Part shown: piece by piece, positions 1-29,265 of the stretch | Position numbering within the stretch: position 1 is the first letter of the stretch | Layout: each line of letters begins with the position of its first letter | Assembly (NCBI RefSeq): GCF_017348835.2 | Contig: NZ_CP071375.1 | Direction: 5' to 3' (one strand) | Origin: Escherichia coli | Lineage (GTDB): Bacteria > Pseudomonadota > Gammaproteobacteria > Enterobacterales > Enterobacteriaceae | DNA length: 64,000 nt | The notes under the pieces: generated by a model | What the model was told of the DNA's origin: nothing | What the model saw: only the letters and a program-made list of their open reading frames with translations | Databases searched by the model: none | Position numbers and translations under genes: made by a program

Positions 1-92
1 GTCACCGCGATTTATGCACGGCTTGAATGTATTGCTGATGTTAACTCAGGATGAAGCCAGGTAGATAGCGTAAGATGTGATTCACGATGGTA

Positions 93-491
93 TTAAACAA
101 ATGCTTTAGCAAAGGAAGGGTCAAATGGTCCCTCTTTCACCTCCATCATGAGAGCACGAGGAGACAAGCATTTGACACTGTGTATGTCTCCCGGAGAAAA
201 CTCCACAATGTTAATTTCTGTATTTTCTCCGACAATAAATTGCTTAACGACTTCTCCATCTTTGCCATGCAAACAAACCTGAAGCTGGCCCTGCATGACG
301 ATAAACATTTCCCACTGATGAGGAAGTTCATGGAAATGAGGTTCTACATAGCTACTACTGACCAGGGCAATGAGTAGTCGTTGCACCTTATCCTGATGCG
401 AACTATGCATCAAAAGATGGGAACGCAGGCGCTCGGATTGCTCTGCTTGTTCGTATAATGCCTCAAGCTGGTCATTATCAATTAATCGCAT
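93..491 (-). CDS. wbuC: WbuC-like small cupin-type protein, the usual companion of wbuB in L-FucNAc O-antigen clusters
   Basis: 132-aa ORF at the distal end of the O-antigen operon, directly downstream of and overlapping the wbuB-like gene; assigned by recognition and synteny. Confidence 0.65.
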   Translation of the reverse strand: MRLIDNDQLEALYEQAEQSERLRSHLLMHSSHQDKVQRLLIALVSSSYVEPHFHELPHQWEMFIVMQGQLQVCLHGKDGEVVKQFIVGENTEINIVEFSPGDIHSVKCLSPRALMMEVKEGPFDPSFAKAFV

Positions 492-1692
492 TGCATGCCT
501 CCAGCCTCATTTCTATCGTCCGCGCCGCAGACTCAACGGAGAACTGCTCTTTTAACAACTTGTTCGCGCCCAGACCAAATCGCTGGCGCGCATCAATGTC
601 ATAAAGCATTAACAGCGCAGAATGGTAAAGCTTGTCATCCTCTCCATTGATATGGATTAATCCTGCGTTATTTTGATTGACGATGTCGAGCAGATCATTT
701 CCAGCATTCACGCTACCTAATATAGGTAGAGACTGAACCATGTAACCTAACAACTTACCCGGAAAATTGTGAGAAGAGTGTTTGGCAGAAAGAGAAAACA
801 GGCCTATATCCATTTCCGATAAGATGAACTTAAATTCTTCCTGATTCACCGAAGCCAGATACGTGAAATTCGACAATGCCCACTCAGTAGCCAGAGAGTT
901 AATTAATTCCACTTCATCACCCTGGCCAATGAACAGGAAATGAGCTTGTGGATGCTCTGCCATACTTCGGGCAAGACGCATAAGATTTGCCATATCCTGT
1001 GCATGCCCGATATTTCCTCCATAGAAGAAAATCACTTTATCCTCTAGACCGAGGCGCTTACGCAGTGGCACATATTCTGGGGATAATACCGTCGGCGTGA
1101 GAGATGCCCAGTTACGTAGAACTTCGCAAGGATAGCCCTTGTTTGTCACCCGAAAAACATCAAGGTTTTTATCAGACATGAGTCCAATACGGTTTGCCTG
1201 ACGATAAGATGATCTTTCAAAGAGACGAAAATAACGTTCAATTGGGGATCCCTCTTTTAGCATTCCAGCATCAATTACCCATTGAGGAAACATATCTCTC
1301 AATATTAAATAAGCCGGACATTGGCAGCGGGCTTTAATCTTCTTAACTAAATGCCCCCAAAAAATAGACGGTGAGTAATAAACCACACCATCGAAAGTTT
1401 CTTCTTCTATCCGGCTTTTAATAGATTTCCAGGCCCGCCAAGACAAAAGTGTTTCATTGATGGCTCGCTGAACTTTACTTACATCCTTGAGCGGACCACT
1501 TTTAAAACGCCATGTTTTGACACCCTGAAAGCTGTCAAACGACACCTCTTCTTGCAGGCTTGTATCAGGAGTAATTACCGTAACATCATGGCCACGGCGA
1601 ATAAATTCCTGAGCTAACTCATGAAACATTTTTGCACCAACACGGGTACTATTGGGCAGGTAATCATCTATGATTAAAGCAAGTTTCATCAA
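478..1692 (-). CDS. wbuB: GT4-family glycosyltransferase, WbuB-like (L-FucNAc transferase)
   Basis: 404-aa ORF immediately downstream of fnlABC, the conserved position of wbuB in FucNAc-containing O-antigen clusters; start overlaps fnlC stop. Confidence 0.75.
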
Positions 1693-2819
1693 TATTCTTT
1701 CCAGACGACTCTCTTGACGTAATCTGTATAAGAGTGAACGATTCTGACGACCTTATCCGACACATTTGGCATACTGTAATCACTAACCTGCCGTAAGAGA
1801 CGGGTCTCCCCGCGAGGTTGTGTCGACAAAATTTCAAGCGCCTGAAGCACGCGTTCACACTCCAGTCCCACCATCATGACGGATGCTTCCTCAAAGCCCT
1901 CCGGACGTTCATGTGCTTCCCGGATGTTTACAGCAGGAAAATTCATGATGGATGACTCTTCAGTAATTGTGCCGCTGTCTGACAACACAGCACGTGAATT
2001 CTTTTGCAGGTGATTGTAATCATGGAAACCTAACGGTTTCAGCAGATTAATATTTGGGTGGAATTCAATCCCTTGCTCATTAATACGATTACGCGTCCGC
2101 GGATGTGTGGATACAATGACTGGCAGATCATATTTTTCGGCAATGGTATTTAGAATGGTCGCAAGCTTGATGAGTTGCTTCGGAGAATCGACATTCTCTT
2201 CACGGTGTGCGCTAACGACAAAGAATTCACCAGGGCGCAAATTTAGACGTGACAACACATCCGAACCATCAATTTGAGGCATATAGTACGAAAGCACTTC
2301 AAACATAGGGCTGCCGGTTTTAATGATCCGATCCGCCGGGATACCTTCAGCCAGGAGATATTCACGCGCAATATCGCTGTAGGTCATATTGATGTCAGCC
2401 GTATGATCAACAATTCGTCGGTTAGTTTCTTCAGGTACACGCTGATCGAAACAACGGTTGCCAGCTTCCATATGGAAGATAGGCACTTTACGACGCTTGG
2501 CAGGAATGGCAGAAATACATGAGTTGGTATCGCCCAGCACCAGCATTGCTTCAGGTTTTTCGGTTTCTAATACTTCATCAACTTTGATGATAACCTGACC
2601 AATGGTTTCCGCCGCATTTTTCCCTGCAGCGTTTAAGAAATAATCTGGCTTACGGACACCAAGATCGTTAAAGAATACTTCGTTCAACTCATAATCATAA
2701 TTTTGCCCAGTATGGACAAGAATATGCTCACAATGTTCGTCAAGTTTGACCAAAACACGTGATAAACGGATGATTTCAGGACGTGTCCCAACCACAGACA
2801 TAATTTTTAATTTTTTCAT
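1689..2819 (-). CDS. fnlC: UDP-N-acetylglucosamine 2-epimerase, non-hydrolysing (FnlC/Cap5G type)
   Basis: 376-aa ORF beginning [19 protein letters not shown], the typical N-terminus of non-hydrolysing UDP-GlcNAc 2-epimerases; follows fnlA-fnlB. Confidence 0.85.
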
Positions 2820-3922
2820 TACAGAGGTCTCGCAATAGTATCAGGCTCATCACGATTGAAAATTTCGTTTGCCCAGAGCATAACTATTAATTCATCATTG
2901 CCAACATTCGTGACGTCATGGGTCCAGCCGGGTACTGTTTCAACGATTTTGAACTCATCGGATGAAACATTCAGTTCATAACGTTCACCGGTAATCACAT
3001 GTTCGAATTTGAAGCACGCCTGTCCACGGATGACCAGGAACTTCTCATTTTTGGTGTGATGATAATGCCCACCACGCGTTATACCGGGATGCGCTGTGAA
3101 AAATGAAAACTGCCCCGCTGAAGGCGTTTTTAACATCTCACAAAAGATCCCGCGGGCATCACCATAGGACGGCACCGTATAAGCAAACTTTTCGGCTGGT
3201 AAGTAACTTAACCACGTCGAATATAGCGCTCGGGTCATTCCCGTCCCCACAGCTTCTGTGACAAGCGTAGAACGACTCTCCTTGAAACGATAAAGTAATT
3301 CCGCCACCTCACCAACTGTCGTTGAGTAAACCGGCACAACGCCTTTATATCCGCTATGAACCTCTCCTGTGAGAAGTTTTATCGCATGTGTGCAAACGTC
3401 ATCGATATAAACCAGATTAACCGGTGCCGAAGGGTCATTGATGGTTATGTCAATATTGTTGGCAATGTTATGGCAGAAGGTAGCCACGAACGAGTTATAG
3501 TTCGGTTTACACCATTTACCAAAAACATTTGGGTACCGATAGATATAATATGCTGCACCACTTTCTGCTGCATAACGCTCAATTTGTTTTTCAGCTGCAG
3601 CCTTACTCTGACCATACGCATTATCCAGTTCAGCCTGGATCGAAGAACTGATCATAATAGGTATGCTTTTGTTCTTCGCTAACAGAGAATCCACAATCTG
3701 CTGAGTAAAATTGCAATTCCCTTCGACAAACTCTTCGACATTTTTAGGTCGATTGATACCCGCAAGGTGATAAATGAAATCCGCATCTTGCAGGCCAATT
3801 TCAAGCTCGGCCGCACTTGAGTCACGGTCAATCTTAACAAGGTCAACATACCCTGCTTCCTGAAGGCGTAAGCACAAGTTACGTCCGATAAAGCCATCAG
3901 CTCCAGTAATCAGGATTTTCAT
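2819..3922 (-). CDS. fnlB: FnlB/Cap5F-type reductase of the UDP-L-FucNAc pathway
   Basis: Rossmann N-terminus [16 protein letters not shown]. The ORF track starts 11 codons upstream (3955); the internal ATG at 3920-3922 lies 1 nt after the fnlA stop and is the likelier start. Confidence 0.8.
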
Positions 3923-3923
3923 G

Positions 3924-4958
3924 TCAGGCGTCCAGATCGTAATTTTCACCAGCACGCAGTGCGCGAATAAACGGCAACTTAAGAAGCAGCGTTTTCATCC
4001 CTTCTACATCCAGTCGCTGTGTATTATGGGAGTTATAATCTTCAACAACGGAGATACGGCTGTCACCTTGTTCTACATATTTTCCGTAGTTAAGGTCACG
4101 CAAATCAGGTGGTACGCGATAGTAATCACCCATATCGATGGCCGCAATCATCTCTTCACGGCTCAGCAGCGCTTCATAGAGCTTTTCTCCATGGCGGGTA
4201 CCAATGACATTGACAGGATGGTGCTCGACATTCAGAAGCTCTTTCAGAGCAATTGCTAATGTTTCAATCGTAGCTGCAGGCGCTTTTTGTACAAAAATGT
4301 CGCCATTATTACCGTGCTCAAATGCATAAAGCACCAGATCGACAGCATCCTCAAGGGTCATCATGAAACGAGTCATGTTTGGATCAGTGACAGTCAGCGC
4401 TTTACCTGCTTTGATCAGATCAACAAACAGCGGAATCACCGAACCACGAGATGCCATAACGTTGCCATAGCGAGTACCACAAATCACCGTTTTATTGCTG
4501 TTTACATTTCGGGATTTAGCGACCATGACTTTCTCCATCATCGCCTTAGAGATACCCATGGCATTGATTGGATAAACCGCTTTATCAGTACTTAAACACA
4601 CAACGCGTTTTACTTCGTTTGCAATTGCAGCTTCGAGAACGTTTTCGGTGCCGAGCACGTTAGTCTTAACCGCTTCCATTGGATGGAATTCACATGATGG
4701 CACTTGTTTAAGGGCGGCAGCATGGTAGATAAAATCAACGCCACGGCTGGCATTGAGTACACTGCGATAATCCCTGACATCGCCTATGTAAAACTTAAGC
4801 TTCTCACTATTGTATTTCTTGCGCATATCATCTTGCTTTTTTTCATCGCGCGAGAAAATGCGAATTTCTTTAATATCAGTTTCCAGAAAACGATTTAAAA
4901 CTGCATTTCCAAAGGAACCTGTTCCGCCTGTAATCAAAAGCACTTTATCTGAAAACAT
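3924..4958 (-). CDS. fnlA: UDP-GlcNAc 4,6-dehydratase/5-epimerase (FnlA/CapE type)
   Basis: 344-aa ORF with LLITGGTGSFG N-terminus and extended SDR fold, as in FnlA/CapE/WbjB; first gene of the fnlABC triplet. Confidence 0.85.
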   Translation of the reverse strand: MFSDKVLLITGGTGSFGNAVLNRFLETDIKEIRIFSRDEKKQDDMRKKYNSEKLKFYIGDVRDYRSVLNASRGVDFIYHAAALKQVPSCEFHPMEAVKTNVLGTENVLEAAIANEVKRVVCLSTDKAVYPINAMGISKAMMEKVMVAKSRNVNSNKTVICGTRYGNVMASRGSVIPLFVDLIKAGKALTVTDPNMTRFMMTLEDAVDLVLYAFEHGNNGDIFVQKAPAATIETLAIALKELLNVEHHPVNVIGTRHGEKLYEALLSREEMIAAIDMGDYYRVPPDLRDLNYGKYVEQGDSRISVVEDYNSHNTQRLDVEGMKTLLLKLPFIRALRAGENYDLDA

Positions 4959-4978
4959 TTAATACCTCTTAAGAAATC

Positions 4979-6082
4979 TTATAACTTATCAATGCTGCGC
5001 ATGTACATTAAGGCCCTTTCTTTAGCCGTTGGAAGCTTGCTAAAAATTAAGTCGGCCTTTTCTTGCTTTATCACTTTATCGTGTACGCCTTCAACTCCAG
5101 AAATGATTTTGTCACAAATATCATTGGCATCATAAGGATCAAAATATATTGCGCTGTCGTCACACACTGTATGAGCAAATGGTAGATCAGACGTGAAGAT
5201 CATTTTTTTGAAATACATGGCTTCTACATAACTGGCACTGAAACACTCCAGTAACGTTGGCAAAAATAGTGCATCACAATAATGATATAATGCTGGACAT
5301 TGATTAATGGAAACTGGCCCAACATTAATTACACGATGGCTATACCGTTCGGGAATATCCGCCATCGAAGAACTTAACGTAACAATGAACTTGTAATTAT
5401 CTGGCAATAACTCAATTAGCTTGGGTATCACGGTTAGGTTTTTGTGAGGATAATCATGTGAAATTGTCAGAAGGTAAATGTCCCCCACATTCCTCTCCGG
5501 TAAATCGTCTAAGATACTATTATCGTATAAATCCTCATTCTGCAAAATCGCATTGATTGTATTAGGAACAGTGACGACATGACTGTCCTTAAAATGATAT
5601 TGTTCCACAAGTTTATTTTTAGCATCATCAGTTTCAACAAATATAAGATCTGCATTTTTTTTATAAAAATAAGGTTGTAGGCGCAGTAAAAGTATCTTTT
5701 TTACCTTTTCACAAAAACTTAACTTCGGAAATACTTGGCTCACATCATAAATCAGCCATGGCAACGCGAATCCAACGGCATGCTTAACATTCTTCGGGCT
5801 CCAGTAACTTGGGCCAAATATCGTAAAGACTTTCGTAATTTTATTTTCAGCAACGAGCTGATCTAAATCTCGTCTTGATTCAACATTGAACACATTTGAT
5901 GGTGTTTTTCTGATAATTTTGCATCTTGATAGTGTTTCTCCTGAGAGTTGTTTCGCAACTACAGGTGAAACTGCTGCAATGAAATGTTGCCCACCTTTAG
6001 TTAACTCTTCTAATACAGATACAGCAACCTGAACACCACCACCCACATACAGATTAGATGCATTAATCAGCAAACTCATCAA
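4979..6082 (-). CDS. Glycosyltransferase, GT1/GT4-like (specificity unknown, possibly a hexose transferase)
   Basis: 367-aa ORF between wzy and fnlA in the O-antigen operon; AT-rich; assigned by position and general resemblance to GT-B glycosyltransferases. Confidence 0.6.
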   Translation of the reverse strand: MMSLLINASNLYVGGGVQVAVSVLEELTKGGQHFIAAVSPVVAKQLSGETLSRCKIIRKTPSNVFNVESRRDLDQLVAENKITKVFTIFGPSYWSPKNVKHAVGFALPWLIYDVSQVFPKLSFCEKVKKILLLRLQPYFYKKNADLIFVETDDAKNKLVEQYHFKDSHVVTVPNTINAILQNEDLYDNSILDDLPERNVGDIYLLTISHDYPHKNLTVIPKLIELLPDNYKFIVTLSSSMADIPERYSHRVINVGPVSINQCPALYHYCDALFLPTLLECFSASYVEAMYFKKMIFTSDLPFAHTVCDDSAIYFDPYDANDICDKIISGVEGVHDKVIKQEKADLIFSKLPTAKERALMYMRSIDKL

Positions 6083-6129
6083 TATCTTCCCTTATTTTAA
6101 CTGCTATAGACATCTTCGTCGAAAAAGGA

Positions 6130-7443
6130 TTATTTTTTAGGTGTATTTTCTATCCTTCGAGGCTCGACTTTTCTAATGAGCAGCAAAAGGAACAACACAA
6201 TTAAGTATGGAATGATTAAGACAAATTCCCCAAAGAAATAGTTTCCAAACAGCATAAACACGATCGCTTTCATAAAACACGCCTGTAACAGACAATATTT
6301 AATATTGCTGGATGTTTTATTGTAGATAATTTGAAGCAATAAGCCAATAATAAATGAATAGAGTATTACACCAGCTAATCCTAGATCATTATAGAAATAG
6401 TATATAAATGTTTTTGCATTGAAAAAACCAACCTCATAGTCAGTGAACCCCATGGAGTTACTATCGTAATAGGTACCAAAGAACGGCTTAAGAATAAACT
6501 TAAGACCACCCCATATATATGTGGGTTCGAATGATGAGTTAATTAATAAATTCAGATTCTGAAAATTCATTGCAACATAGGTGTAAATCTGGCTAAAAAG
6601 CGAATTTGCCATCCCATCACCAAATTGAGTAGAGGCGCGACTTGTTTCTGAAATCCGCATTGCACCGATATACAAAAGCAATGCCATCGGTAGCATAACC
6701 ATCATTAGTTGTTTGAACCCTAGCGTAATTTTACGTGGAATCAGAAAAATATAGATGGCACCTAACATGAATACTAAAAATTCTCCCCTTGATACCTCAT
6801 AAACCAATGCAACTACAATACTGAAAAAAACATAGGATAGAAGGAAATACTTTCTCACACGCCCTTGTCGATATGAGTACTTAAGTTCAAATAGAGCAGC
6901 AAGTGCTATGTAAGGCATTGATACATCTATGAAATTCAACAACGGAGGCGCATTTGGAACTAATGATTTTAAATCACTTCCTGCACCAGACAGAAGTGGT
7001 GGATTAGTGAGCATCACTCCAAAGCGCATAAAGAAAGCAACGACTGATAAAGCTACAATAAAATTAAAAAATACGCGATAAAATAAGTTAAAGTCAAAAC
7101 GCTGAAAACTAAAATTATTTTTATCTATCTTTTTTGAAAATACAAATGGGGCAACAAAGAAAACACCAGCAAGTAAAATAGCACTTAGTGTTTCCAGACT
7201 TAATTCTGATTGCAATTGATGGTCATACAGAATATCAACCGTAGACAGGGAAGCTGAGAAGTACCAAAAAACAATACCAATTCCAAGAGGATGAATAATA
7301 TCTTTTGTTTTTAAAACAATTAAAGAATATAAGACCAAAGCTATTATAAAGAATGCAATTGAGATCATAATGGGCTCTACCGCGAATTTACTTATTATTA
7401 TACGCGAGATGCTTTGCGCGCGAAATGAAATAACAATAACCAA
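6130..7443 (-). CDS. wzy: O-antigen polymerase Wzy (polytopic membrane protein)
   Basis: Very hydrophobic 437-aa ORF with many predicted TM segments, adjacent to wzx. The ORF-track start overlaps wzx by 56 nt; the true start may be the internal Met near 7368. Confidence 0.6.
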   Translation of the reverse strand: MVIVISFRAQSISRIIISKFAVEPIMISIAFFIIALVLYSLIVLKTKDIIHPLGIGIVFWYFSASLSTVDILYDHQLQSELSLETLSAILLAGVFFVAPFVFSKKIDKNNFSFQRFDFNLFYRVFFNFIVALSVVAFFMRFGVMLTNPPLLSGAGSDLKSLVPNAPPLLNFIDVSMPYIALAALFELKYSYRQGRVRKYFLLSYVFFSIVVALVYEVSRGEFLVFMLGAIYIFLIPRKITLGFKQLMMVMLPMALLLYIGAMRISETSRASTQFGDGMANSLFSQIYTYVAMNFQNLNLLINSSFEPTYIWGGLKFILKPFFGTYYDSNSMGFTDYEVGFFNAKTFIYYFYNDLGLAGVILYSFIIGLLLQIIYNKTSSNIKYCLLQACFMKAIVFMLFGNYFFGEFVLIIPYLIVLFLLLLIRKVEPRRIENTPKK

Positions 7444-10172: not shown

Positions 10173-10257
10173 TAAATTTAACTACCTCTTCATTTCCAAA
10201 ATGCAAATGTAAAAATCAACATTTCAAACTTAATATTCATTCAATAAATGATAAAAA

Positions 10258-11022: not shown

Positions 11023-11023
11023 T

Positions 11024-11725: not shown

Positions 11726-12688
11726 TTATTCTGCCAACTTTTTTATCCGATTAACTAATGCGATGGTTTTAACTGCATCAGTCAATTTGATGCATTGATT
11801 CTCGCGCCCATGTATATAGTTATCAAAATCTTTCAACATATCCAAATACATGGTGTTTTTATCGTATTGCGGTTCATTATAAATCAAACACTCATCTGAT
11901 TTATTAATTAATTTCACTTGATTATTGATCAAATCCCATTCTACCCGTCCATCTGTACCTAAGAAACTACATTTCCTGAACGCTTTTTTCTGTAGAAAAT
12001 CCAAATGAATATTGACAACGATTTCATCTTTTGAAATAGCAATAATATCTGCTATATCTTCAACATCGATATCAAGCACACCGGAATTTCGGACTGTAGC
12101 ATGGAGAACATCTAGCTCGCCAAAAAGCCAGCGTGTATAATCCAATTCATGGCTTAACTCCAGGAGAGCCCCACCACCCAAAGCTTTATTAGCTGAGACA
12201 CTTTCTTTATAGTTTTTACTAACACGCCAGTCCGGGAGATACTGTCCGATCTCGATAAAGGCGTTAAATATTCTGCCTGCTTTCTTCTCTTCTAAAACTC
12301 TTTTTAACGAAAGCGCAGAGGGCAAATAGCGCAAACAATACCCAACAGCGACTACCGAATTAAAACGCATTGATGCATCCAGTAATGCCTCTGCATCAGA
12401 CGTCGATACCGTAACAGGTTTCTCAATTAGAACAGGTATACCGGCTTTAATAAATGGTATGGCATGTCCAGCGTGTAACGTTGCTGGAGATGCTATAATA
12501 GCCATATCAACAATATCTAAGAGTTCATCTATGATATTTACTACCTGATCACAATCACTTATTTCACCATGAATTTTGCGTCCAGAGGCTGACATCGCAT
12601 AAACTTTGATACCGGGATAAACTTTTTTGAGATTGCGACGATGTCTGTCTGCAATATTACCTAATCCAATCACCGCAACTGCTTTCAT
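11726..12688 (-). CDS. ptmF: Gfo/Idh/MocA-family oxidoreductase, PtmF-like
   Basis: 320-aa ORF with N-terminal NAD-binding fold (MKAVAVIGLGNIADRH); sits between ptmE-like and legF-like genes as in Campylobacter-type leg clusters. Confidence 0.65.
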   Translation of the reverse strand: MKAVAVIGLGNIADRHRRNLKKVYPGIKVYAMSASGRKIHGEISDCDQVVNIIDELLDIVDMAIIASPATLHAGHAIPFIKAGIPVLIEKPVTVSTSDAEALLDASMRFNSVVAVGYCLRYLPSALSLKRVLEEKKAGRIFNAFIEIGQYLPDWRVSKNYKESVSANKALGGGALLELSHELDYTRWLFGELDVLHATVRNSGVLDIDVEDIADIIAISKDEIVVNIHLDFLQKKAFRKCSFLGTDGRVEWDLINNQVKLINKSDECLIYNEPQYDKNTMYLDMLKDFDNYIHGRENQCIKLTDAVKTIALVNRIKKLAE

Positions 12689-13746
12689 TAGTCAAAACCT
12701 AGTGTAAAGTAATCTACCTGCGCCCTTTTGAAGTCATCCATTCTACCGATATCCAACCAGTACTCATGTATAGGGAACATAAGGATGTTTTCATTATTAT
12801 CCATATGCTCTTCAAGAAGAGTTGGCATATCAATACGATGATTTTTAGGCACTGCTTTGAAGATTTGTGGTGACACAACATAGATCCCTGCATTGACGAA
12901 AAATCGGTGTACAGGCTTCTCTTCCATCGAGATGATTTTATTTCCATCCCCTTTTATGACGCCATAGGGAATTTGATAATCATATTCGCGTACACACATA
13001 GTTGCGTCAGCTTTGCTTTCTATGTGGAATTTAATCAAACGCTCGTAATCAACATTGGTCAAGACGTCGCCATTTATCATGATGAGAGGATGTTCATCCG
13101 ATAAATCTTCAGGTAACAAACCTAAAGCACCGCCAGTGCCCAGCGGTTTTTCTTCATGTACATAGCGGATTTTTGAATCAAACCGCTCACCATCACCGAA
13201 ATGTTCTTTGATAATCTCAGGCATATAGTGAGTCGAGATATAGAAATTATTAAACCCAGCTTTAACAAAACTGCGAATTACGGTTTCTAATATTGGCTTA
13301 CCACCGATACAAAGCATGGGCTTTGGGCAGGAATCCGTTAATGGTTTTAATCTTGTTCCAAATCCGCCAGCCATGATAAACACAGGGTTAGGATATTTTT
13401 TCTTATTATTTACTGACTGGATAGTCTCCAGACCGATTACTTTACCATCGCGAAGGATAGGAACAGACAAAATCCCTTTTACTTTCATCAGCGTGTTTAA
13501 CTCGGCTGAAGAAACACTACTGGTCGCTGTGACTGGCTGAGTATTCATGACCTGTGAAGTTTTAGCCGAGAGATCCAGATTATTCAGCAATCCCCTTCTG
13601 ATGTCTCCATCAGTGATGACACCTAATAAATTATTTTCATTATCAACAACTAACGCGATACGTAGAGCTTCACGGTTAATAATTTCGAGCGCTTCACGCA
13701 GTGAGCTGTCCGGTCGGATCAGCACATTTTTCCAATGCTGCATCAT
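12688..13746 (-). CDS. ptmE: CBS-domain sugar-phosphate nucleotidyltransferase, PtmE-like (GlcNAc-1-P guanylyltransferase type)
   Basis: 352-aa ORF with N-terminal CBS pair (LLGVITDGDIRR) followed by a nucleotidyltransferase domain (FIMAGGFGTRLKPLT); this architecture is diagnostic of the GDP-GlcNAc route to legionaminic acid. Confidence 0.7.
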   Translation of the reverse strand: MMQHWKNVLIRPDSSLREALEIINREALRIALVVDNENNLLGVITDGDIRRGLLNNLDLSAKTSQVMNTQPVTATSSVSSAELNTLMKVKGILSVPILRDGKVIGLETIQSVNNKKKYPNPVFIMAGGFGTRLKPLTDSCPKPMLCIGGKPILETVIRSFVKAGFNNFYISTHYMPEIIKEHFGDGERFDSKIRYVHEEKPLGTGGALGLLPEDLSDEHPLIMINGDVLTNVDYERLIKFHIESKADATMCVREYDYQIPYGVIKGDGNKIISMEEKPVHRFFVNAGIYVVSPQIFKAVPKNHRIDMPTLLEEHMDNNENILMFPIHEYWLDIGRMDDFKRAQVDYFTLGFD

Positions 13747-13766
13747 GAATTACCTTTTGTAAGACA

Positions 13767-14402
13767 CTATTTGATAACCGATCTTGCCGGATAGCAAACT
13801 TGCCCATTATCTAACGACTGCACTAATACTGCGCCAGCACCCACCATTGAATTACTGCCTAGTATCATCCCAGGGATTATTGTGGAACCTGCCCCCACAA
13901 AAACTGATTCCCCCGTTTTAACCTGCCCGCACAACACCGCACCGGGTCCAATAAAGCTGTGATTTCCTATCTGGCAGTCATGTTCAATAATCGCACGGGT
14001 ATTAATTATTGAATGGCTACCAATTACTACCCCAGGATTGACTATCGTTCCTGACAGAACTTGGGCCCCGTTCATAATATGGGCATGTGCGGAAATTAAT
14101 GCATCTTTAGCAATTACACTGGCAAATTGATATCCATGGCGAAGATAGGATTCCGTAACATTCTTTCTTACCGAAGATCGCGGAACCATACCGATGCCAT
14201 TAACTAATTCAATGTCTTTATTTGAGTACTGAAAAATATCGTCATCAGTGCGGAATACTTTGATTCCAGAAAAAATTGTTCTTGCGGGGACATCATGCGG
14301 ACTCACAACAGCGATAACTTCCCGCATGTTTGAATTCAGAATGTCCAGTAGGACACTGGCATGGCCGCCACCACCAATAAGAACAACAGGTTTGCTATTC
14401 AA
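13767..14402 (-). CDS. legH: Hexapeptide-repeat N-acetyltransferase (LegH/NeuD/PglD family)
   Basis: 211-aa ORF with N-terminal VLIGGGGHASV and C-terminal left-handed beta-helix repeats; overlaps legI start by 8 nt. Confidence 0.7.
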   Translation of the reverse strand: MNSKPVVLIGGGGHASVLLDILNSNMREVIAVVSPHDVPARTIFSGIKVFRTDDDIFQYSNKDIELVNGIGMVPRSSVRKNVTESYLRHGYQFASVIAKDALISAHAHIMNGAQVLSGTIVNPGVVIGSHSIINTRAIIEHDCQIGNHSFIGPGAVLCGQVKTGESVFVGAGSTIIPGMILGSNSMVGAGAVLVQSLDNGQVCYPARSVIK

Positions 14403-15468
14403 TAATCAGATCTCCCGGCAAATATTCTTTTGTTGATATTTTTTCCAGGATATCCCAGTAGCTATAAGGCGACATCCCGTTTCCAGGTCTCTTGATTGTA
14501 ACATTCGACGCGGTAAAAGTTTCCCCCGCTCGAATTTTCTGCGCAGCCACCAGACTTTTTCTCGCAACCGACTTGTTTTTAATTTCTGAAACGGTTGGTG
14601 CTTTGACCTTATTTCCTAGCGCTATTTCTATTTGCCTGATCGCTTTTACCATTGCGGCCAGTTCATCAGGTTCAAGTGAAGCTTTATGATCCGGACCTTC
14701 CATATTTTTATCTAGCGTGAAATGTTTCTCAATAATCACAGCCCCTCTGGCAACGGCTGCTACAGGGATAGCTATCCCCTCGCTGTGATCGGAATAGCCC
14801 GCAGGAAGGTCAAAAGCTTCTCGTAAGGAATCCATTGCTCTCAAGTTAATTTCACCCATTGGCGCAGGATATTCAGTCGTACAGTGAAGAATTGTCACTT
14901 TCTCTTTCAGCAACTTCTGACCTTCACGTGTTGCATAGGCTCTTTCAAAGGCTTCGATACAAGGTTTTTCATCCTTTGAACTGATATATCCGAATGCGAT
15001 AACACCCAAAGCAGCTTCTATTTCAGAAAGAGTGGCCATCCCCGTTGAAACAATAATATCGCAACCTGTTCTGGCATGTTCCAGAACCAACGGTGCATTG
15101 GTGAGCTCACCAGAAGGCAATTTCAAGCGTTTGATTCCAAGATCATTCACCAGGAAATCAAGGCTTTCTGAATCAAAGGCCGTGGAAAGAAATTCTATCC
15201 CCAATGCTTCACAATGCTTAACCAATGCATGATGCGCTTCCCATGACAGTTCAAGACGGCTTAGCATCGCTAGTTGCGATTCCTGTCGTTGAGTATTCGC
15301 CACCTGATAATCGGCTTGCTTTGCCTGTTCGGTCACCAGGTTTTTCGCTTTAAACGTCTGGAACTTAACAATATCAGCCCCGGCCTTATAAGCAGCATCA
15401 ACAAGTTCAAAAGCCAGTTTTTCGTCGCCGTTGTGATTAACACCGGCTTCAGCAATGATAAGCGTCAT
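14395..15468 (-). CDS. legI: Nonulosonic acid synthase (NeuB family; legionaminic acid synthase-like)
   Basis: 357-aa ORF, MTLIIAEAGVNHNGD N-terminus, TIM-barrel NeuB signature and C-terminal antifreeze-like/SAF domain. Confidence 0.85.
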   Translation of the reverse strand: MTLIIAEAGVNHNGDEKLAFELVDAAYKAGADIVKFQTFKAKNLVTEQAKQADYQVANTQRQESQLAMLSRLELSWEAHHALVKHCEALGIEFLSTAFDSESLDFLVNDLGIKRLKLPSGELTNAPLVLEHARTGCDIIVSTGMATLSEIEAALGVIAFGYISSKDEKPCIEAFERAYATREGQKLLKEKVTILHCTTEYPAPMGEINLRAMDSLREAFDLPAGYSDHSEGIAIPVAAVARGAVIIEKHFTLDKNMEGPDHKASLEPDELAAMVKAIRQIEIALGNKVKAPTVSEIKNKSVARKSLVAAQKIRAGETFTASNVTIKRPGNGMSPYSYWDILEKISTKEYLPGDLIIE

Positions 15469-15474
15469 ATAGTT

Positions 15475-16644
15475 TCACTTGATGTCGTAGAACGTCTTGC
15501 CGGGAACAAAATGCATGGACTTAATCATCTCAATGATTTTCGAACTTGCATCACCCTGGCCATAAGGATTCGCAATGTCTTCATCGCGGTTTTTATAACT
15601 GCGCGTAACCGCAATTCTTAATGCCTTCGCAATCGACTCCGTCGTTGCAGGGCAATTCAACACGCTTCGGGCAGCCAACCGGCCTTTTTGCCTTTCGCCA
15701 ATGTTAACGGTAGGAACATCAAACGCAGGAACTTCAATAATCCCGCTGGAGGAATTACCTACCACTGCCGCTGCATACTTCACAGCACTGAGATAGCGCA
15801 CCTGTCCTAAAGAAGGAATCGCCAGCACACGCTCGGGTTGTCTGGCAGCATAGGCTTCGAGCAAGGGAATGATCTTTCTGCCACCATCATCTGCGTTGGG
15901 ATAGGTCAGGATGACCTGATACTCCGGGTACTCATCAAGCGCCGCTAACAACGCGTTAAAACTTGCTTCTGCAGGCTCGTCACCCAGAGTGACAGGATGA
16001 TACGTCACCAGTAAGAATGGTTTTCTAAGCGGGAATTTCAGCGAGACACCTAATTCCTCAACAGACATAAATTGTCCGCGCTTGAGATGATCCAGCCCAA
16101 TTGCGCCAACATTGACTACGCGAGAAGGATCTTCCCCTAGCTGGATAACACGATTCCGATAGGCCTCTGTTGAAGTTCCATGTAAATAACTCAGTTTAGT
16201 AATCGCGTGTCTGATCGCATCGTCGTAGGCACCCTCCGTAATTTCCCCACCATGTAGATGCAGAATGGGAATACGGAGAATCATCGCCGTCTGTGCCGCT
16301 GCAAGAGCTTCAAAACGGTCCCCGAGTATCACTAAAATATCCGGCTTTAATCTGTTCAGGGCATCAGCAAAACCCAATATCCCCAGCCCCATGCTTTTTG
16401 CAGTCCCTACTGCCGTATCCGAAGAAAGCAATATATCAATCTTCTCATCAATTGAAAAACCGTCTTTCTCAATCTGCTGCCAGGTATTTCCAAACTCGGG
16501 CGAGAGATGCATACCACTAACGAGAAGCTGAAGTTCCAGCTCTTTGTCATCCTGGATATCTTTCAACAGCCAGTAGAGCAAGCCATATTCAGCTCGCGTG
16601 CCGGTAAATACCGCAACTTTACGTTTTGCTGACCCCATTACCAT
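15475..16644 (-). CDS. legG: Hydrolysing NDP-sugar 2-epimerase (NeuC/LegG family)
   Basis: 389-aa ORF with NeuC-like N-terminus (KVAVFTGTRAEYGLL); start codon overlaps legC stop by 1 nt (translational coupling). Confidence 0.8.
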   Translation of the reverse strand: MVMGSAKRKVAVFTGTRAEYGLLYWLLKDIQDDKELELQLLVSGMHLSPEFGNTWQQIEKDGFSIDEKIDILLSSDTAVGTAKSMGLGILGFADALNRLKPDILVILGDRFEALAAAQTAMILRIPILHLHGGEITEGAYDDAIRHAITKLSYLHGTSTEAYRNRVIQLGEDPSRVVNVGAIGLDHLKRGQFMSVEELGVSLKFPLRKPFLLVTYHPVTLGDEPAEASFNALLAALDEYPEYQVILTYPNADDGGRKIIPLLEAYAARQPERVLAIPSLGQVRYLSAVKYAAAVVGNSSSGIIEVPAFDVPTVNIGERQKGRLAARSVLNCPATTESIAKALRIAVTRSYKNRDEDIANPYGQGDASSKIIEMIKSMHFVPGKTFYDIK

Positions 16645-17786
16645 TACTCCATTGGAGAGCTAGGTATGTTGATCAGGCGAGCTTCAATCTGTTCAGAGTT
16701 CTTGAGATCATCACGCATTGCATGTTCAAACATTGGCAGACGGTGCATCAATTTCCAGATTGGGCGAACCATTACTTTGGCTTCATTCATTTGTACCAGC
16801 ATTGCATCACGGGCATCCATGTTTTCACAAATGATGGCATTCAGCCAGAAGTTTGACTGAGCATATTCAGGTTCTTTCACGAACCTGAACTCTGACCCGG
16901 CAAAAAATGCCTCATAGCGCTGAGCCAACTCACGTTTTTGTTTCAGGAACGAATCAAGGCGTTCCATCTGCCCACACCCAAGCGCAGCGTTGAGGTTTGG
17001 CATACGATAGTTGAAACCTGGTTCATCATGATAAAACTCGTAGGGATGCGGTACTTTTGCTGTCGTAGTGACATGTTTCGCACGAACACCCGCTTCTGAC
17101 GAGCGACAGAGGACCATTCCGCCACCACCGGTCGTAATAATTTTATTGCCGTTAAAGCTTAACGCTCCATAGTCACCGAGCGTACCGGTGTGTTTACCCT
17201 TGTAGAAAGAGCCCAGACTTTCAGCCGCATCTTCAACAAGAACGATGTGCCACTTCTGGCAAACGGTAATAAGCTCATCCAGCTCAACCGGATGACCAAA
17301 GGTATGCATAGGCACCACAGCACGTACAACCTGCCGTGTTTTACGGTGCACACATCCTTTTTCTGTCAGCTCGGTATTTTCAGATAACCAATTATCAAGT
17401 GCGACCGGGCACAGCCCCATACTCACCGGAGAGACATCGGTAAACACCGGCTCAGCTCCCAGATGATAAAGCGCATTGCAGGTTGCAATGAAGGTCAGTG
17501 CCTGAGTGATAACAAGATCACCTCGCTTAACACCTGCCAGGTATAACGCTGCGCTTAACGCGGCTGTTCCGTTAACCGTTGCAACCGCTCTCGCCGTTCC
17601 GGTGTAAGATTCCATTTTACGTTCGAAATCATCGACATATTTACCGACGCTCGACACGAAAGTACTGTCCAGAGTATCCAGAACATATTTTTTTTCGTTG
17701 CCATTAAACACTGGCGCATGCAAAGGAATAAATTCATCCGTTTTGTATACGTCGCGAACAAATTCGATAATTGATTTGATATTCAT
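16644..17786 (-). CDS. legC: PLP-dependent aminotransferase, DegT/DnrJ/EryC1 family (LegC-like)
   Basis: 380-aa ORF of the sugar-aminotransferase family; placed between dehydratase and 2-epimerase genes. Confidence 0.8.
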   Translation of the reverse strand: MNIKSIIEFVRDVYKTDEFIPLHAPVFNGNEKKYVLDTLDSTFVSSVGKYVDDFERKMESYTGTARAVATVNGTAALSAALYLAGVKRGDLVITQALTFIATCNALYHLGAEPVFTDVSPVSMGLCPVALDNWLSENTELTEKGCVHRKTRQVVRAVVPMHTFGHPVELDELITVCQKWHIVLVEDAAESLGSFYKGKHTGTLGDYGALSFNGNKIITTGGGGMVLCRSSEAGVRAKHVTTTAKVPHPYEFYHDEPGFNYRMPNLNAALGCGQMERLDSFLKQKRELAQRYEAFFAGSEFRFVKEPEYAQSNFWLNAIICENMDARDAMLVQMNEAKVMVRPIWKLMHRLPMFEHAMRDDLKNSEQIEARLINIPSSPME

Positions 17787-17801
17787 TCGGGGATGCCTTG
17801 C

Positions 17802-19016
17802 TTACATTTTGCTGTCGAGGTATTTACCTGTTTCTTTATGTCTGAAGTCAGGGATCATTTCAAAAAACAGTTTTACAATATCGTCTTTATTCCATTCCAG
17901 AGATGCTTTCATCTCTTCGATACGTTCTTCAAAGTGGGCCAGAAGCGCAGGGTCATATAAAGGTTCATTCTTGATAATGCCCAGATTGTTAAAACGCTCC
18001 ATATCAAGCGTTTCATTATCGGTGAAGAACTCCTCGAAATCTTTCTCACCTGTCGTATCACTTGAGGTAAACAAACATGGCCATTTACCTTGTGCTGGCA
18101 GGGTTTTAGCAAGCTCACGAGCTTCGTCTTCGGTTTCACAAAGATGAGGCTCATAACCACGTTGCTTAAGGTAGAGAACCGCAATATCGGCAAAAGAAAT
18201 GAGGTGTAATGCTTCACTCAGTTTCGGGAAGAAGATGTCACGATTATCACCAAAAATACATGACATCAGACAGAGCTCACCTGATTCCTGAGGGGTGACG
18301 AAATAACGCTTGATATCATTCGGTGCAACCAGGGGTTGCTGCTTGTGGAGGCGTTGATTGAACCCATGCAGAAGGGAGCCATCAGAAAAGGCTACGTTCG
18401 CGAAACGTGCAGTAGAGATGGCGATTTGTTCACTTTTACGCATCAGGAACATTTCCATAATACGCTTAGAAGCGCCCATCATATTTACCGGATTCGCGGC
18501 CTTGTCGGTCGATACGCAGAAGAATTTCTTAACGCCAGCAGCAATAGACTGCTCAATGGTTTTGTCAGTATTGAGAATATTGACTTCAATCATGCGCATC
18601 AGGGTAAACGGATCTTTCTCACTGCGAACATGTTTCAGGGCAGATAAATTCAGAACGTAATCATATTTACCGTCAGCTTTGATAAAAGCGTCGTATTCTA
18701 CAGAGCCGATATCAAGCGCGAACGTCTGGAAATCACCAGCAATATAACCGAAGGAACTGCGTATATCACGAACCAACTCAACCATGTTGTTTTCGCTAAT
18801 ATCGACAACATGCAGTTTCTGAGGATTGCGTTTAAATATTTCTTTTACAACAGCCTGACCAATAGAGCCAGCACCGCCAAGTACAAGGAAGCGTGATTCG
18901 GAAACGATTTTTTTTAATTCTTTTTCATTTTCAGAAACATCATCACTGAATAATTCTTTATTACGCCCAATCAATTGGAGGATATTATACATTTCGAGAT
19001 CCAGTTTGTTACTCAT
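17802..19016 (-). CDS. legB: NDP-GlcNAc 4,6-dehydratase, extended SDR (LegB-like)
   Basis: 404-aa ORF with Rossmann motif VLGGAGSIGQAV; first gene after the JUMPstart/ops element, i.e. promoter-proximal gene of the O-antigen operon. Confidence 0.7.
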   Translation of the reverse strand: MSNKLDLEMYNILQLIGRNKELFSDDVSENEKELKKIVSESRFLVLGGAGSIGQAVVKEIFKRNPQKLHVVDISENNMVELVRDIRSSFGYIAGDFQTFALDIGSVEYDAFIKADGKYDYVLNLSALKHVRSEKDPFTLMRMIEVNILNTDKTIEQSIAAGVKKFFCVSTDKAANPVNMMGASKRIMEMFLMRKSEQIAISTARFANVAFSDGSLLHGFNQRLHKQQPLVAPNDIKRYFVTPQESGELCLMSCIFGDNRDIFFPKLSEALHLISFADIAVLYLKQRGYEPHLCETEDEARELAKTLPAQGKWPCLFTSSDTTGEKDFEEFFTDNETLDMERFNNLGIIKNEPLYDPALLAHFEERIEEMKASLEWNKDDIVKLFFEMIPDFRHKETGKYLDSKM

Positions 19017-19143
19017 TATATTCAGGTCAAAACGGCTTCAGTCAAAAAAAATTTCGTGGCTGCAATCGTTTCATATATATTGACATTCTTAAAAAACCGG
19101 GGGAAACCTTCGGTTTTAATTAGCATCAAGCCAGAAAATTGAT

Positions 19144-19182
19144 ACGCTACCGCCCCTGGCTTAACAGCTACCAGTGCACTGC
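19144..19182 (-). promoter_or_regulatory. JUMPstart element with ops motif (RfaH-dependent antitermination site) upstream of the O-antigen operon
   Basis: Plus strand reads acgctaccgcccctggcttaacagctaccagtgcactg; the reverse complement contains GGCGGTAGCGT (ops) within the 39-bp JUMPstart consensus, in the galF-to-first-O-antigen-gene spacer. Confidence 0.75.
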
Positions 19183-19438
19183 GAACTTTCATAGACGTGT
19201 TGAACTCTGCTTTCAGTCGCAAAGCCTCTAAACTCAAACACTAATTGTCTTACCATTCGGTGTCAGAAACAAGAAGAAATACTACAAAATCCAGTTCAAA
19301 ATTTTGTAGCTAACTCAATGAAAACAAACACCTTTCAGCAAAAACGGCAGAAACATTCTTTTCTTACCGGCATCACTGCCTCGAATGTTAACTGCTGTTT
19401 ATAGATTTTTAATCAATCAAACTGGCTAATTTGTGGTC

Positions 19439-20332: not shown

Positions 20333-20506
20333 TATTTCATCCACCTGTAAAATGGTTGCTGAATTATAGCTTGTTCGATTTTTTTCGCCAGCATCAATTA
20401 CCCTGAATTGATTACTGAATTACTTGTGATGTTACGCCGCTTCGTTGTGGATTGCAGTAGCATTGTTCCTAAGTATGGCTCCATTTTTCCAGGAATGGTC
20501 GCAAAT

Positions 20507-29177: not shown

Positions 29178-29265
29178 GTCGTTACCCTTTTTCAGGCAAT
29201 AGTTGGCCCTGACCGAAGCGGCCAATTTTGTTTTTGTCGTTATTTACACCGCGGTTTCGCATTCA

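Follow-up and report, generated by a model that had tools for sequence, protein, structure and literature searches.

A probable complete O108 O-antigen cluster of Escherichia coli with a predicted route to CMP-8eLeg5Ac7Ac

Introduction

Which O antigen is encoded beside galF in this E. coli genome, and which nonulosonic acid would its genes make? In the stretch of 64,000 nucleotides analysed here (the window), the initial annotation had described 18 co-directional genes between galF and the left edge. It read them as a legionaminic acid (Leg)-type pathway on GDP-GlcNAc combined with the L-FucNAc pathway, and offered O108 as a possible serogroup. Very probably (about 0.93), positions 1-19438 are a complete and intact Wzx/Wzy-dependent O108 O-antigen cluster, organized as one RfaH/JUMPstart-controlled operon of 18 genes reaching from galF to gnd, with nine genes for CMP-8-epilegionaminic acid (CMP-8eLeg5Ac7Ac). 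The O108 cluster itself is already known.

Results

The mechanical ORF list gave exactly 18 consecutive minus-strand ORFs (93 to 19016) in positions 1-19438, in agreement with the earlier count, and profile models and PGAP names placed each of the enzyme classes then named, including fnlABC with wbuB and wbuC, at its position (Table 1). The KpsS-like gene, wzx and wzy had gone unmentioned. The left window edge falls inside the gnd-wbuC spacer and, in a near-identical genome, gndA ends 23 bases ahead of window position 1; the whole cluster thus lies within the window. Its G+C content is 35-45% compared with 52.5% in the flanking core, a typical trait of O-antigen clusters. No gnu/gne gene was found between galF and wcaM, which fits a repeat unit started with GlcNAc.

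Table 1. Features of the O-antigen cluster and its upstream boundary, from galF towards gnd
Feature	Position	Strand	Assignment	Support
galF	19439-20344 (ORF); 19439-20332 (PGAP)	-	upstream boundary of cluster	TIGR01105, 687.1 bits (cut-off 659.2)
JUMPstart element	19143-19181	-		Rfam RF01707, 59.2 bits (gathering score 35)
ops motif GGCGGTAGCGT	19144-19154	-	RfaH-dependent antitermination signal, upstream of orf1	inside JUMPstart
orf1	17802-19016	-	NDP-GlcNAc 4,6-dehydratase, Polysacc_synt_2 family	PF02719, E 7.6e-45
orf2	16644-17786	-	LegC-family aminotransferase	TIGR04181, 536.2 bits (cut-off 420)
orf3	15475-16644 (ORF); 15475-16638	-	hydrolysing NDP-sugar 2-epimerase, NeuC-type, LegG role	TIGR03568, 481.4 bits (cut-off 235.9)
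orf4	14395-15468	-	NeuB-type nonulosonate synthase, LegI role	TIGR03569, 499.6 bits (cut-off 399.65)
orf5	13767-14402	-	NeuD/PglB/VioB-family N-acetyltransferase, LegH role	TIGR03570, 191 bits (cut-off 160.8)
orf6	12688-13746	-	CBS-pair and sugar-1-phosphate nucleotidyltransferase, PtmE/LgaF-like	two regions, separate models
orf7	11726-12688	-	Gfo/Idh/MocA oxidoreductase, PtmF/ElaA-like; putative C8-OH oxidation	PGAP name
orf8	11024-11725	-	CMP-nonulosonate synthetase, LegF/ElaB-like	PGAP 'acylneuraminate cytidylyltransferase family'
orf9	10258-11022	-	SDR oxidoreductase, PtmA/ElaC-like; putative second half of C8 epimerisation	NF006619, 343 bits (cut-off 255)
orf10	8583-10172	-	KpsS/Gtr59-like protein	Capsule_synth PF05159, E 4e-6
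orf11 (wzx)	7388-8590	-	O108 O-antigen flippase	exact sequence UniRef A0A0A8J876; GRAVY 0.77; PGAP O108 name
orf12 (wzy)	6130-7368	-	O108 O-antigen polymerase	TIGR04370, 131.5 bits (cut-off 40); PGAP O108 name
orf13	4979-6079	-	GT4 glycosyltransferase	database names 'Glycosyl transferases group 1', 'glycosyltransferase family 4'
orf14 (fnlA)	3924-4958	-	UDP-GlcNAc 4,6-dehydratase/5-epimerase	TIGR04130, 755.6 bits (cut-off 730)
orf15 (fnlB/wbjC)	2819-3922 (PGAP); 2819-3955 (ORF)	-	reductase	NF047837, 564.9 bits (cut-off 500)
orf16 (fnlC)	1689-2819	-	non-hydrolysing UDP-sugar 2-epimerase, last step to UDP-L-FucNAc	TIGR00236, 222.7 bits (cut-off 210)
orf17 (wbuB-type)	478-1692 (ORF); 478-1689	-	GT4 glycosyltransferase	PGAP 'glycosyltransferase family 4 protein'; WcaI-family, 84.6 bits, below cut-off
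orf18 (wbuC)	93-491	-	cupin-fold protein of L-FucNAc cassette	TIGR04366, 141.6 bits (cut-off 42); PGAP 'WbuC family cupin fold metalloprotein'

What the data show directly is which locus this is and to which families its proteins belong. Window positions 1-19500 are 100.0% identical in DNA sequence to E. coli F2_81, from which the 64 kb differ by 11 SNPs (one in the cluster, synonymous), and 99.8-100% identical to four further complete E. coli genomes. PGAP names wzy and wzx in F2_81 and these four genomes 'O108 family O-antigen polymerase' and 'O108 family O-antigen flippase', and the exact Wzx and Wzy proteins of the window occur under O108 names on 281 and 236 public contigs respectively. 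The O108 cluster is the largest E. coli O-antigen cluster, with 18 genes in 19.5 kb (Iguchi et al. 2015, PMC4379981), and the present cluster matches this size. Numbered from galF, the KpsS-like gene adjoining the nonulosonic acid module is orf10 and a glycosyltransferase gene is orf13, as in the re-annotation by Kenyon et al. 2015 (PMC4487303). Judged by database names and agreement with the literature, the initial guess of O108 appears to have been right. The predicted composition (di-N-acyl nonulosonic acid, L-FucNAc, one further sugar and a WecA-started GlcNAc) also fits the reported O108 polysaccharide, in which 8eLeg5Ac7Ac is linked α-(2→6) to D-Gal and α-D-Gal-(1→3) to α-L-FucNAc (PMC4487303).

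Within the nonulosonic acid module, the first enzyme had been called LegB-like, which holds for its function; its family is PF02719, and no similarity to TIGR04180, the LegB model, could be detected. Its alignment with PDB 3pvz (766 bits) begins at Met9 and its orthologues in O161 and L004 have 396 aa; the annotated start is probably 8 codons too long and the true one the ATG at 18992. The best solved relative of the NeuC-type enzyme is the A. baumannii GDP/UDP-diNAcBac 2-epimerase 5zlr (432 bits, compared with 200 bits for human GNE). Orf6 consists of a CBS region (residues 8-120) and a nucleotidyltransferase region (122-346), and among models and solved structures the nearest to it are mannose-1-P guanylyltransferases. 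Orf7 resembles sugar 3-dehydrogenase and inositol dehydrogenase models. The SDR had been termed PtmA-like: it is homologous to PtmA (E 4.5e-62) but scores 209.9 bits against the PtmA model NF050062, whose cut-off is 350.

Among the transferases, orf17 (WbuB) would add L-FucNAc to GlcNAc-PP-Und, as its synteny with fnlABC and wbuC suggests. Orf13, to which the Gal-(1→3)-L-FucNAc linkage has been given (PMC4487303), may be the α-1,3-galactosyltransferase acting on L-FucNAc, and orf10 probably transfers 8eLeg5Ac7Ac from its CMP form to O-6 of Gal.

Discussion

We infer by homology all steps to CMP-8eLeg5Ac7Ac and, likewise, the nucleotide carrier and the stage of C8 inversion. In this scheme, the CBS-nucleotidyltransferase would supply NDP-GlcN(Ac), probably GDP-linked, which the PF02719 dehydratase, the LegC-type aminotransferase and the NeuD-type acetyltransferase would convert to NDP-2,4-diacetamido-bacillosamine. 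The NeuC-type enzyme would then release the nucleotide and 2-epimerise the sugar, and the NeuB-type synthase would form Leg5Ac7Ac with PEP. The Gfo/Idh/MocA and SDR pair might invert C8 by oxidation followed by reduction, and the cytidylyltransferase would activate the product to CMP-8eLeg5Ac7Ac. With UDP-L-FucNAc from fnlABC, the unit would be built on GlcNAc-PP-undecaprenol (WecA) by addition of L-FucNAc (WbuB), Gal (GT4 orf13) and 8eLeg (KpsS-like orf10), to be flipped by Wzx and polymerised by Wzy. O108 was reportedly studied by Perepelov in 2010 (pmid 20331420).

That the cluster instead makes Neu5Ac or pseudaminic acid, its dehydratase and aminotransferase coming from an unrelated amino-sugar pathway, can hardly be maintained. 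In its favour, the TIGR03569 model cannot tell NeuB and LegI apart, and the synthase shares 48% identity with its O161 counterpart, little more than the 44% it shares with a Neu5Ac-type E. coli NeuB. However, the LegC, NeuC, NeuB and NeuD types exceeded their curated cut-offs, whereas PseB, PseC (orf2, 209 bits; cut-off 423.5), PseI (orf4, 262.6; 340) and PseF (orf8, 122; 206) stayed below theirs, and neither a PseG nor a PseH gene was found in the cluster. The NeuC-type enzyme, closest to a diNAcBac 2-epimerase, shares 50% with O161 compared with 39% with the Neu5Ac type, synteny with the modules of O161 and L004 extends to all nine module genes, and the serogroup is O108. The earlier preference for a Leg/8eLeg route is borne out. 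Its GDP-GlcNAc part is suggested by the PtmE-like gene, which is indeed present. As the dehydratase is of PF02719 and not of the LegB family, the choice between GDP and UDP has to be inferred, and a GDP carrier is not secure because other PF02719 members use UDP-GlcNAc. A pathway whose early steps use UDP-linked sugars, like the one that starts from UDP-diNAcBac in Legionella, and in which the CBS-nucleotidyltransferase would serve regulation or some other purpose, is therefore a serious though less likely alternative: the nearest characterised relatives of the dehydratase (FnlA, PglF/WlaL, CapE, PseB/FlaA1) use UDP-GlcNAc, the GDP-specific LegB model does not match it, and 5zlr was deposited as a 'GDP/UDP' enzyme. 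Against this, the PtmE-like gene is retained in all related modules examined (O108, L004 and O161), its closest models are guanylyltransferases and the aminotransferase passes the LegC model. Published work reads a PtmE homologue as the sign of a GDP-linked pathway, and the LegC enzyme of C. jejuni shows strict specificity for GDP (PMC5378307).

It is very unlikely that the module makes legionaminic acid (D-glycero-D-galacto) rather than its 8-epimer, the Gfo and SDR enzymes serving precursor supply like PtmF and PtmA. The order CBS-nucleotidyltransferase, Gfo, cytidylyltransferase, SDR is that of the Campylobacter genes ptmE-ptmF-legF-ptmA, Campylobacter glycans are reported to carry Leg, and the SDR is clearly a PtmA homologue. 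Schemes for C. jejuni and Plesiomonas place PtmA in the first, GDP-GlcNAc segment (PMC4481668). Yet the locus is that of O108, whose polysaccharide reportedly contains 8eLeg5Ac7Ac, and in the O161 cluster, which makes Leg, a PtmE-like gene is retained with neither a Gfo nor an SDR homologue, which argues that precursor supply in E. coli can do without this pair. The O161 orthologues are 79% (dehydratase), 66% (LegC), 50% (NeuC), 48% (NeuB), 57% (CBS-nucleotidyltransferase) and 34% (cytidylyltransferase) identical. Acinetobacter loci show the same contrast: in A. baumannii, lgaABCDEFG leads to Leg and lgaABCDEF/elaABC to 8eLeg, ElaA being a 'putative oxidoreductase' for 8eLeg (PMC9676051). Because O161 lacks Gfo and SDR and has a divergent cytidylyltransferase, and because the trio parallels elaABC, these three genes may mark the 8-epi sugar, on the correlative basis of a single contrast within E. 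coli together with Acinetobacter. A role of the pair as epimerase is likewise correlative, since C. jejuni has the same set and is reported to produce Leg, not 8eLeg. A near-identical dehydratase in Leg and 8eLeg clusters argues against early inversion of C5.

Compared with known systems, the published O108 cluster is the same locus in its galF-gnd position, 18 genes, approximately 19.5 kb, O108-named wzx/wzy and the places of orf10 and orf13, with no difference of substance. The C. jejuni CMP-legionaminic acid pathway (LegB/C/H/G/I/F and PtmE/F/A) was reportedly described by Schoenhofen et al. in 2009; it shares with O108 the reaction logic and the LegC, LegG, LegI, LegF and PtmE-, PtmF- and PtmA-like families. 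In contrast, the first O108 enzyme is outside the LegB family, the SDR does not reach the cut-off of the PtmA model, and the product is the 8-epimer on an O antigen instead of Leg on flagellin.

Orf10 resembles KpsS1 (GT118) and KpsC/KpsS (GT107): it matches Capsule_synth and can be aligned with the half of KpsC that binds the donor (6mgb, E 0.0019), including the K-x-H-P and T-x-x-G-x-x-G-x-E residues, although the similarity is weak (E 0.002-4e-6). Like kpsS1 and gtr59, its gene adjoins CMP-sugar genes. The characterised relatives, such as KpsS1, are retaining enzymes (PMC12887879), whereas the reported α-(2→6) linkage of 8eLeg demands inversion, a puzzle already raised (PMC4487303). In E. 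coli O161 (Leg5Ac7Ala), the shared enzymes, including the same PF02719 dehydratase, occupy the same galF-proximal position, but a FemA/FemB-like gene takes the place of the NeuD-type acetyltransferase gene, and both the fnl cassette and the KpsS-like gene are absent. The A. baumannii lgaABCDEF/elaABC module (K49 type) is part of a capsule locus rather than of one for an O antigen, and is compared through published identity values, such as 63% between orf10 and Gtr59 (PMC4487303). It has, like O108, nine genes, six of Leg type plus the oxidoreductase/cytidylyltransferase/dehydrogenase trio, which stands in for the single cytidylyltransferase gene lgaG of Leg loci (PMC9676051), and in both species a Gtr59/KpsS-like transferase gene adjoins the 8eLeg module (PMC4487303).

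Identity of the O-antigen locus

The mechanical ORF list contains 18 consecutive ORFs between positions 93 and 19016, all on the minus strand and followed by galF at 19439. In the annotation of Escherichia coli F2_81, an Australian pig isolate, gndA ends 23 bases past the left edge of the window, so that the cluster sits between galF and gnd. Positions 1-19500 were identical to the F2_81 chromosome (100.0% DNA identity) and 99.8-100% identical to four further complete genomes. Over the whole 64 kb, 11 SNPs separate the window from F2_81, and only one of them, a synonymous exchange at 13603, falls in the cluster. By PGAP and public-database names, wzx and wzy match O108: the PGAP annotation of F2_81 assigns both genes to the O108 family, and exact-sequence look-ups found the Wzx (UniRef A0A0A8J876, O108 family flippase) on 281 public contigs and the Wzy, which carries an O108 polymerase name and whose 90%-identity cluster includes A0A0A8J5N0, on 236.

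The size of E. coli O-antigen clusters was given as 4.5 kb up to '19.5 kbp (O108, including 18 genes)' (Iguchi et al., PMC4379981). Kenyon and co-workers described orf10 of O108 as KpsS-like and orf13 as a glycosyltransferase (PMC4487303). In agreement with this, the 10th gene from galF, which adjoins the nonulosonic acid module, is KpsS-like and the 13th encodes a glycosyltransferase. The review of Liu et al. (PMC7685785) lists 8eLeg5Ac7Ac, a derivative of 8-epilegionaminic acid (8eLeg), as the nonulosonic acid of O108, with Perepelov et al. 2010 as its source for the structure and the genes. Because genome identity, the Wzx and Wzy names, size and gene count, the positions of orf10 and orf13 and the review listing all agree, the assignment to serogroup O108, made tentatively in the initial annotation, is correct. 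The 18 co-directional genes and enzyme classes named there were also recovered by the ORF list and by curated family models matching at the respective positions. The locus is already published (2010-2015), including the sugar it makes and most of the gene assignments, and its discovery value is small since the same sequence is present in hundreds of public assemblies.

The G+C content was 33-46% across the cluster and 52.5% in the flanking core genes. A JUMPstart element with the ops motif, as is typical of RfaH-dependent operons, precedes the first gene, while promoter and terminator scans gave results at chance level. The plus-strand ORFs within the cluster (100-149 aa) are antisense to well-supported genes.

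Features of the O108 cluster and of the neighbouring region
Feature	Window position	Remarks
WbuB	478-1689	
orf13	4979-6079	GT4 enzyme
wzy	6130-7368	'O108 family O-antigen polymerase' in F2_81 (PGAP)
wzx	7388-8590	'O108 family O-antigen flippase' in F2_81 (PGAP)
orf10	8583-10172	KpsS-like
SDR (short-chain oxidoreductase) gene	10258-11022	elaABC-like trio, in place of one cytidylyltransferase
Cytidylyltransferase gene	11024-11725	elaABC-like trio
Gfo/Idh/MocA oxidoreductase gene	11726-12688	elaABC-like trio
JUMPstart element with ops motif	19143-19181	upstream of first gene; RF01707, 59.2 bits (gathering score 35)
ops motif GGCGGTAGCGT	19144-19154	within JUMPstart
naRNA4/REP-type elements	24529-24791	three, in the wcaK-wzxC spacer
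algC RNA motif	29182-29231	upstream of cpsG
Second JUMPstart element	43709-43747	upstream of wza
RelE/ParE-family toxin gene and helix-turn-helix gene	45847-46465	between asmA and yegH; F2_81 annotation
Sib antitoxin RNAs	59299-60104	three in tandem, between yegL and mdtA; RF00113, 138-143 bits; an annotated Ibs toxin ORF lies opposite each

A legionaminic acid-type module

The LegC-family aminotransferase (TIGR04181, 536.2 bits, cut-off 420), the NeuC-type hydrolysing 2-epimerase (TIGR03568, 481.4 bits, cut-off 235.9), the NeuB-type synthase (TIGR03569, 499.6 bits, cut-off 399.65) and the NeuD/PglB/VioB acetyltransferase (191 bits, cut-off 161) all exceeded the cut-offs of their family models. 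The closest solved relative of the NeuC-type enzyme is a diNAcBac 2-epimerase. Models for pseudaminic acid (Pse) enzymes remained below their cut-offs, given in brackets, with 75 bits for PseB (408), 209 for PseC (423.5), 263 for PseI (340) and 122 for PseF (206), and a family-model search found neither PseG nor PseH genes in the cluster; the Pse route was excluded on these grounds. The Neu5Ac route was excluded because LegC and dehydratase genes are present and NeuC is nearer to legionaminic acid (Leg)-type enzymes, being 50% identical to the enzyme of the O161 cluster versus 39% to the Neu5Ac type. NeuB alone does not discriminate: it scored alike against the solved structures of PseI (162 bits), NmNeuB (154 bits) and SpsE (150 bits) and is 48% identical to the O161 protein versus 44% to that of a Neu5Ac-type locus. 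Since NeuB cannot separate the two types, NeuC, LegC and synteny carry the assignment instead. With LegC and NeuC above and the Pse models below cut-off, the initial view of a Leg-type route, rather than a Neu5Ac or Pse route, is borne out.

In the Leg pathway of Campylobacter and Tannerella, a PtmE homologue is taken as a sign of GDP-linked intermediates (PMC5378307). Following this pathway, the steps would run in the order dehydratase, aminotransferase, N-acetyltransferase, hydrolysing 2-epimerase, synthase and CMP-activation.

First enzyme and nucleotide carrier

For the dehydratase encoded by orf1, the LegB model TIGR04180 (cut-off 475 bits) gave no reported match at E <= 0.001, and at E <= 10 it was absent among the best 25 matches listed, all of at least 12.6 bits. 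The enzyme belongs to Pfam Polysacc_synt_2 (PF02719) and, judged by its sequence, lies outside the Campylobacter LegB family, so that its former label 'LegB-like' does not hold as to family. It aligned with 766 bits to PDB 3pvz, with nearly all aligned positions conserved. Because the 3pvz alignment opens at Met9 and the orthologues of O161 and of the related cluster of E. coli CS18F comprise 396 aa, the real start of orf1 is probably the ATG at 18992, which would make the annotated start (ATG at 19016, 404 aa) 8 codons too long.

The carrier of the early intermediates would be GDP, to judge from the LegC-type aminotransferase and from the CBS-nucleotidyltransferase, in which the architecture of CBS pair and nucleotidyltransferase domain is present and whose nearest models are guanylyltransferases, all scoring below cut-off. 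The GDP-GlcNAc route proposed initially is therefore upheld in part: the PtmE-like CBS-nucleotidyltransferase is there, the LegB-family dehydratase is not, and the carrier itself is inferred. A variant in which the early steps run on UDP-linked sugars could appeal to 3pvz, a structural-genomics entry deposited as UDP-GlcNAc 4,6-dehydratase, and to the more distant solved relatives of the dehydratase (FnlA, WlaL/PglF, CapE and FlaA1), which likewise use UDP-GlcNAc; we regard it as rather improbable, as both the nucleotidyltransferase and the aminotransferase argue for GDP.

Leg or 8eLeg as the product

The O161 cluster, whose wzx is named 'O161 family', belongs to a serogroup with Leg5Ac7Ala in its polysaccharide (PMC7685785). 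Its dehydratase, LegC, NeuC, NeuB and CBS-nucleotidyltransferase are 79, 66, 50, 48 and 57% identical to their O108 orthologues, its cytidylyltransferase is 34% identical, and neither the Gfo/Idh/MocA oxidoreductase gene nor the SDR gene is present. In Acinetobacter baumannii, Leg loci comprise lgaABCDEFG and 8eLeg loci lgaABCDEF/elaABC, ElaA being a putative oxidoreductase (PMC9676051); the nine-gene content of O108 and of the CS18F cluster, compared with O161, mirrors this difference. O108 (8eLeg) and O161 (Leg) hence provide a clean natural experiment, with common early enzymes and differences in the Gfo/SDR pair and the cytidylyltransferase, and the contrast points to candidate genes for a putative C8 epimerisation. 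For Acinetobacter, the accepted proposal is that additional genes convert Leg to 8eLeg (PMC5595891), and in the Pse analogue it was proven genetically that EpaA and EpaB turn Pse into 8ePse (PMC12053666). Because Leg and 8eLeg clusters have a near-identical dehydratase in common, late inversion at C8 by the Gfo/SDR pair is the most likely mechanism: the hydroxyl-bearing C8 would be oxidised by the Gfo/Idh/MocA enzyme and re-reduced by the SDR, and the cytidylyltransferase would be adapted to the epimer.

This supports a correction of the initial annotation as to the significance of the Gfo/SDR pair, which would indicate an 8-epi sugar. In Campylobacter the gene order is ptmE-ptmF-legF-ptmA. 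Leg is the reported product of Campylobacter with this arrangement, the same as found here, and a published scheme assigns PtmA to the first, GDP-GlcNAc segment of the pathway (PMC4481668); a Leg product is nevertheless unlikely for the present cluster, considering its serogroup and an O161 Leg cluster that does without the pair. The SDR, previously called PtmA-like, is a homologue of PtmA without being an equivalog, reaching 209.9 bits with NF050062 (cut-off 350); the 'oxidoreductase' model NF006619 is the better fit (343 bits, cut-off 255).

L-FucNAc cassette and related clusters

The fnl-wbuBC cassette encodes WbuC, a GT4 enzyme, FnlC, FnlB and FnlA, which are at or above the NCBIfam cut-offs wherever an equivalog model exists. 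All UDP-L-FucNAc enzymes were recognized at equivalog level, FnlA with 755.6 bits (cut-off 730), FnlB/WbjC with 564.9 (500) and FnlC, which scores as a WecB-type enzyme, with 222.7 (210). E. coli AH21 (NZ_CP081711.1) has the cassette in common with the window (4001-8948 versus window 1-4948, 92% nucleotide identity), in a gnd-proximal position of a Neu5Ac-type O-antigen cluster (neuD/B/A/C), and its WbuC protein accession is identical to that of O108. It seems that recombination carries this cassette from one serogroup to another.

In E. coli MSI001 (NZ_CP076645.1), and also in ECZP248, FDAARGOS_1277 and CREC_5, a block at 7959-11810 (MSI001 locus coordinates) stands in for window 4959-10257. 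The hybrid cluster of these four complete genomes combines the O108 nonulosonic acid module (99.3% nucleotide identity) with the fnl-wbuBC cassette (99.7%), and its breakpoints coincide exactly with the ends of the SDR gene and of fnlA. Between them are encoded a Wzx-like protein of 420 aa, a soluble protein of 359 aa that matched neither Pfam nor NCBIfam, and a hydrophobic, Wzy-like protein of 377 aa; a KpsS-like gene, a Gal transferase gene and a PGAP serogroup name are absent. The two unannotated genes of this central block matched no family in Pfam and NCBIfam scans and showed no similarity to O108 orf10. An undescribed nonulosonic acid transferase may be encoded here, with the 359-aa protein as the candidate.

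The cluster of E. coli CS18F (NZ_CP074576.1, 1838-16595) contains all nine module genes, with 44-92% protein identity to O108, as well as glf, manC/manB and a gnu 4-epimerase gene upstream of galF. A TIGR04396/BFO_1060-like protein is encoded where O108 has the KpsS-like gene, which suggests that a different nonulosonic acid transferase family serves the same sugar. PGAP names neither wzx nor wzy of this cluster, and serogroup O61 is our guess.

Other features of the window

The elements in the wcaK-wzxC spacer and upstream of cpsG and wza are nothing unusual for the colanic acid region. The gene pair between asmA and yegH, where the surroundings belong to the core, is probably an accessory insertion of a toxin-antitoxin system. 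At the yegL-mdtA site, K-12 presumably carries two Sib copies (sibA and sibB).

Proposed assembly of the O unit and orf10 as a probable transferase

No initiating transferase gene was found in the cluster and no gnu or gne gene between galF and wcaM, so that assembly would start with WecA and GlcNAc. WbuB would add L-FucNAc and orf13 Gal, and the O unit would be flipped by Wzx and polymerised by Wzy. The O108 repeat unit is reported to consist of 8eLeg5Ac7Ac, Gal, L-FucNAc and GlcNAc (in part after Kenyon et al.), and the predicted gene functions are compatible with an O-polysaccharide of these sugars.

For O108, one glycosyltransferase fewer than expected was noted (Liu review, PMC7685785), and this gap is best explained by orf10 as the putative missing enzyme. 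Its product matched Pfam Capsule_synth (PF05159) weakly (E 4e-6) and gave a weak alignment (E 0.0019) to the donor-binding half of KpsC (6mgb), K-x-H-P residues included; 63% identity to Acinetobacter Gtr59 has been reported (PMC4487303). The transferase inventory of the initial annotation was right about the further glycosyltransferase (orf13) but overlooked orf10.

In the superfamily to which orf10 would belong, KpsS1 (GT118) and the Kdo transferases work with retention of configuration (PMC12887879). An alpha-(2->6) 8eLeg linkage formed from a beta-CMP donor requires inversion, and according to Kenyon et al. the structure may need reassessment (PMC4487303). O108 orf10 lends itself to deciding if KpsS-like nonulosonic acid transferases are capable of inversion. 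We offer as speculation, with the odds clearly against it, that orf10, unlike the characterised members of the superfamily, inverts, or else that the published anomeric assignment of O108 is wrong, and that, with its PF02719-type first enzyme and Gfo/SDR C8-epimerase pair, the module found in enterobacteria and Vibrio represents a third version of the route to Leg. Such a variant would differ both from the Campylobacter route, which uses GDP-linked intermediates and LegB, and from the Legionella route, which proceeds via UDP-diNAcBac.
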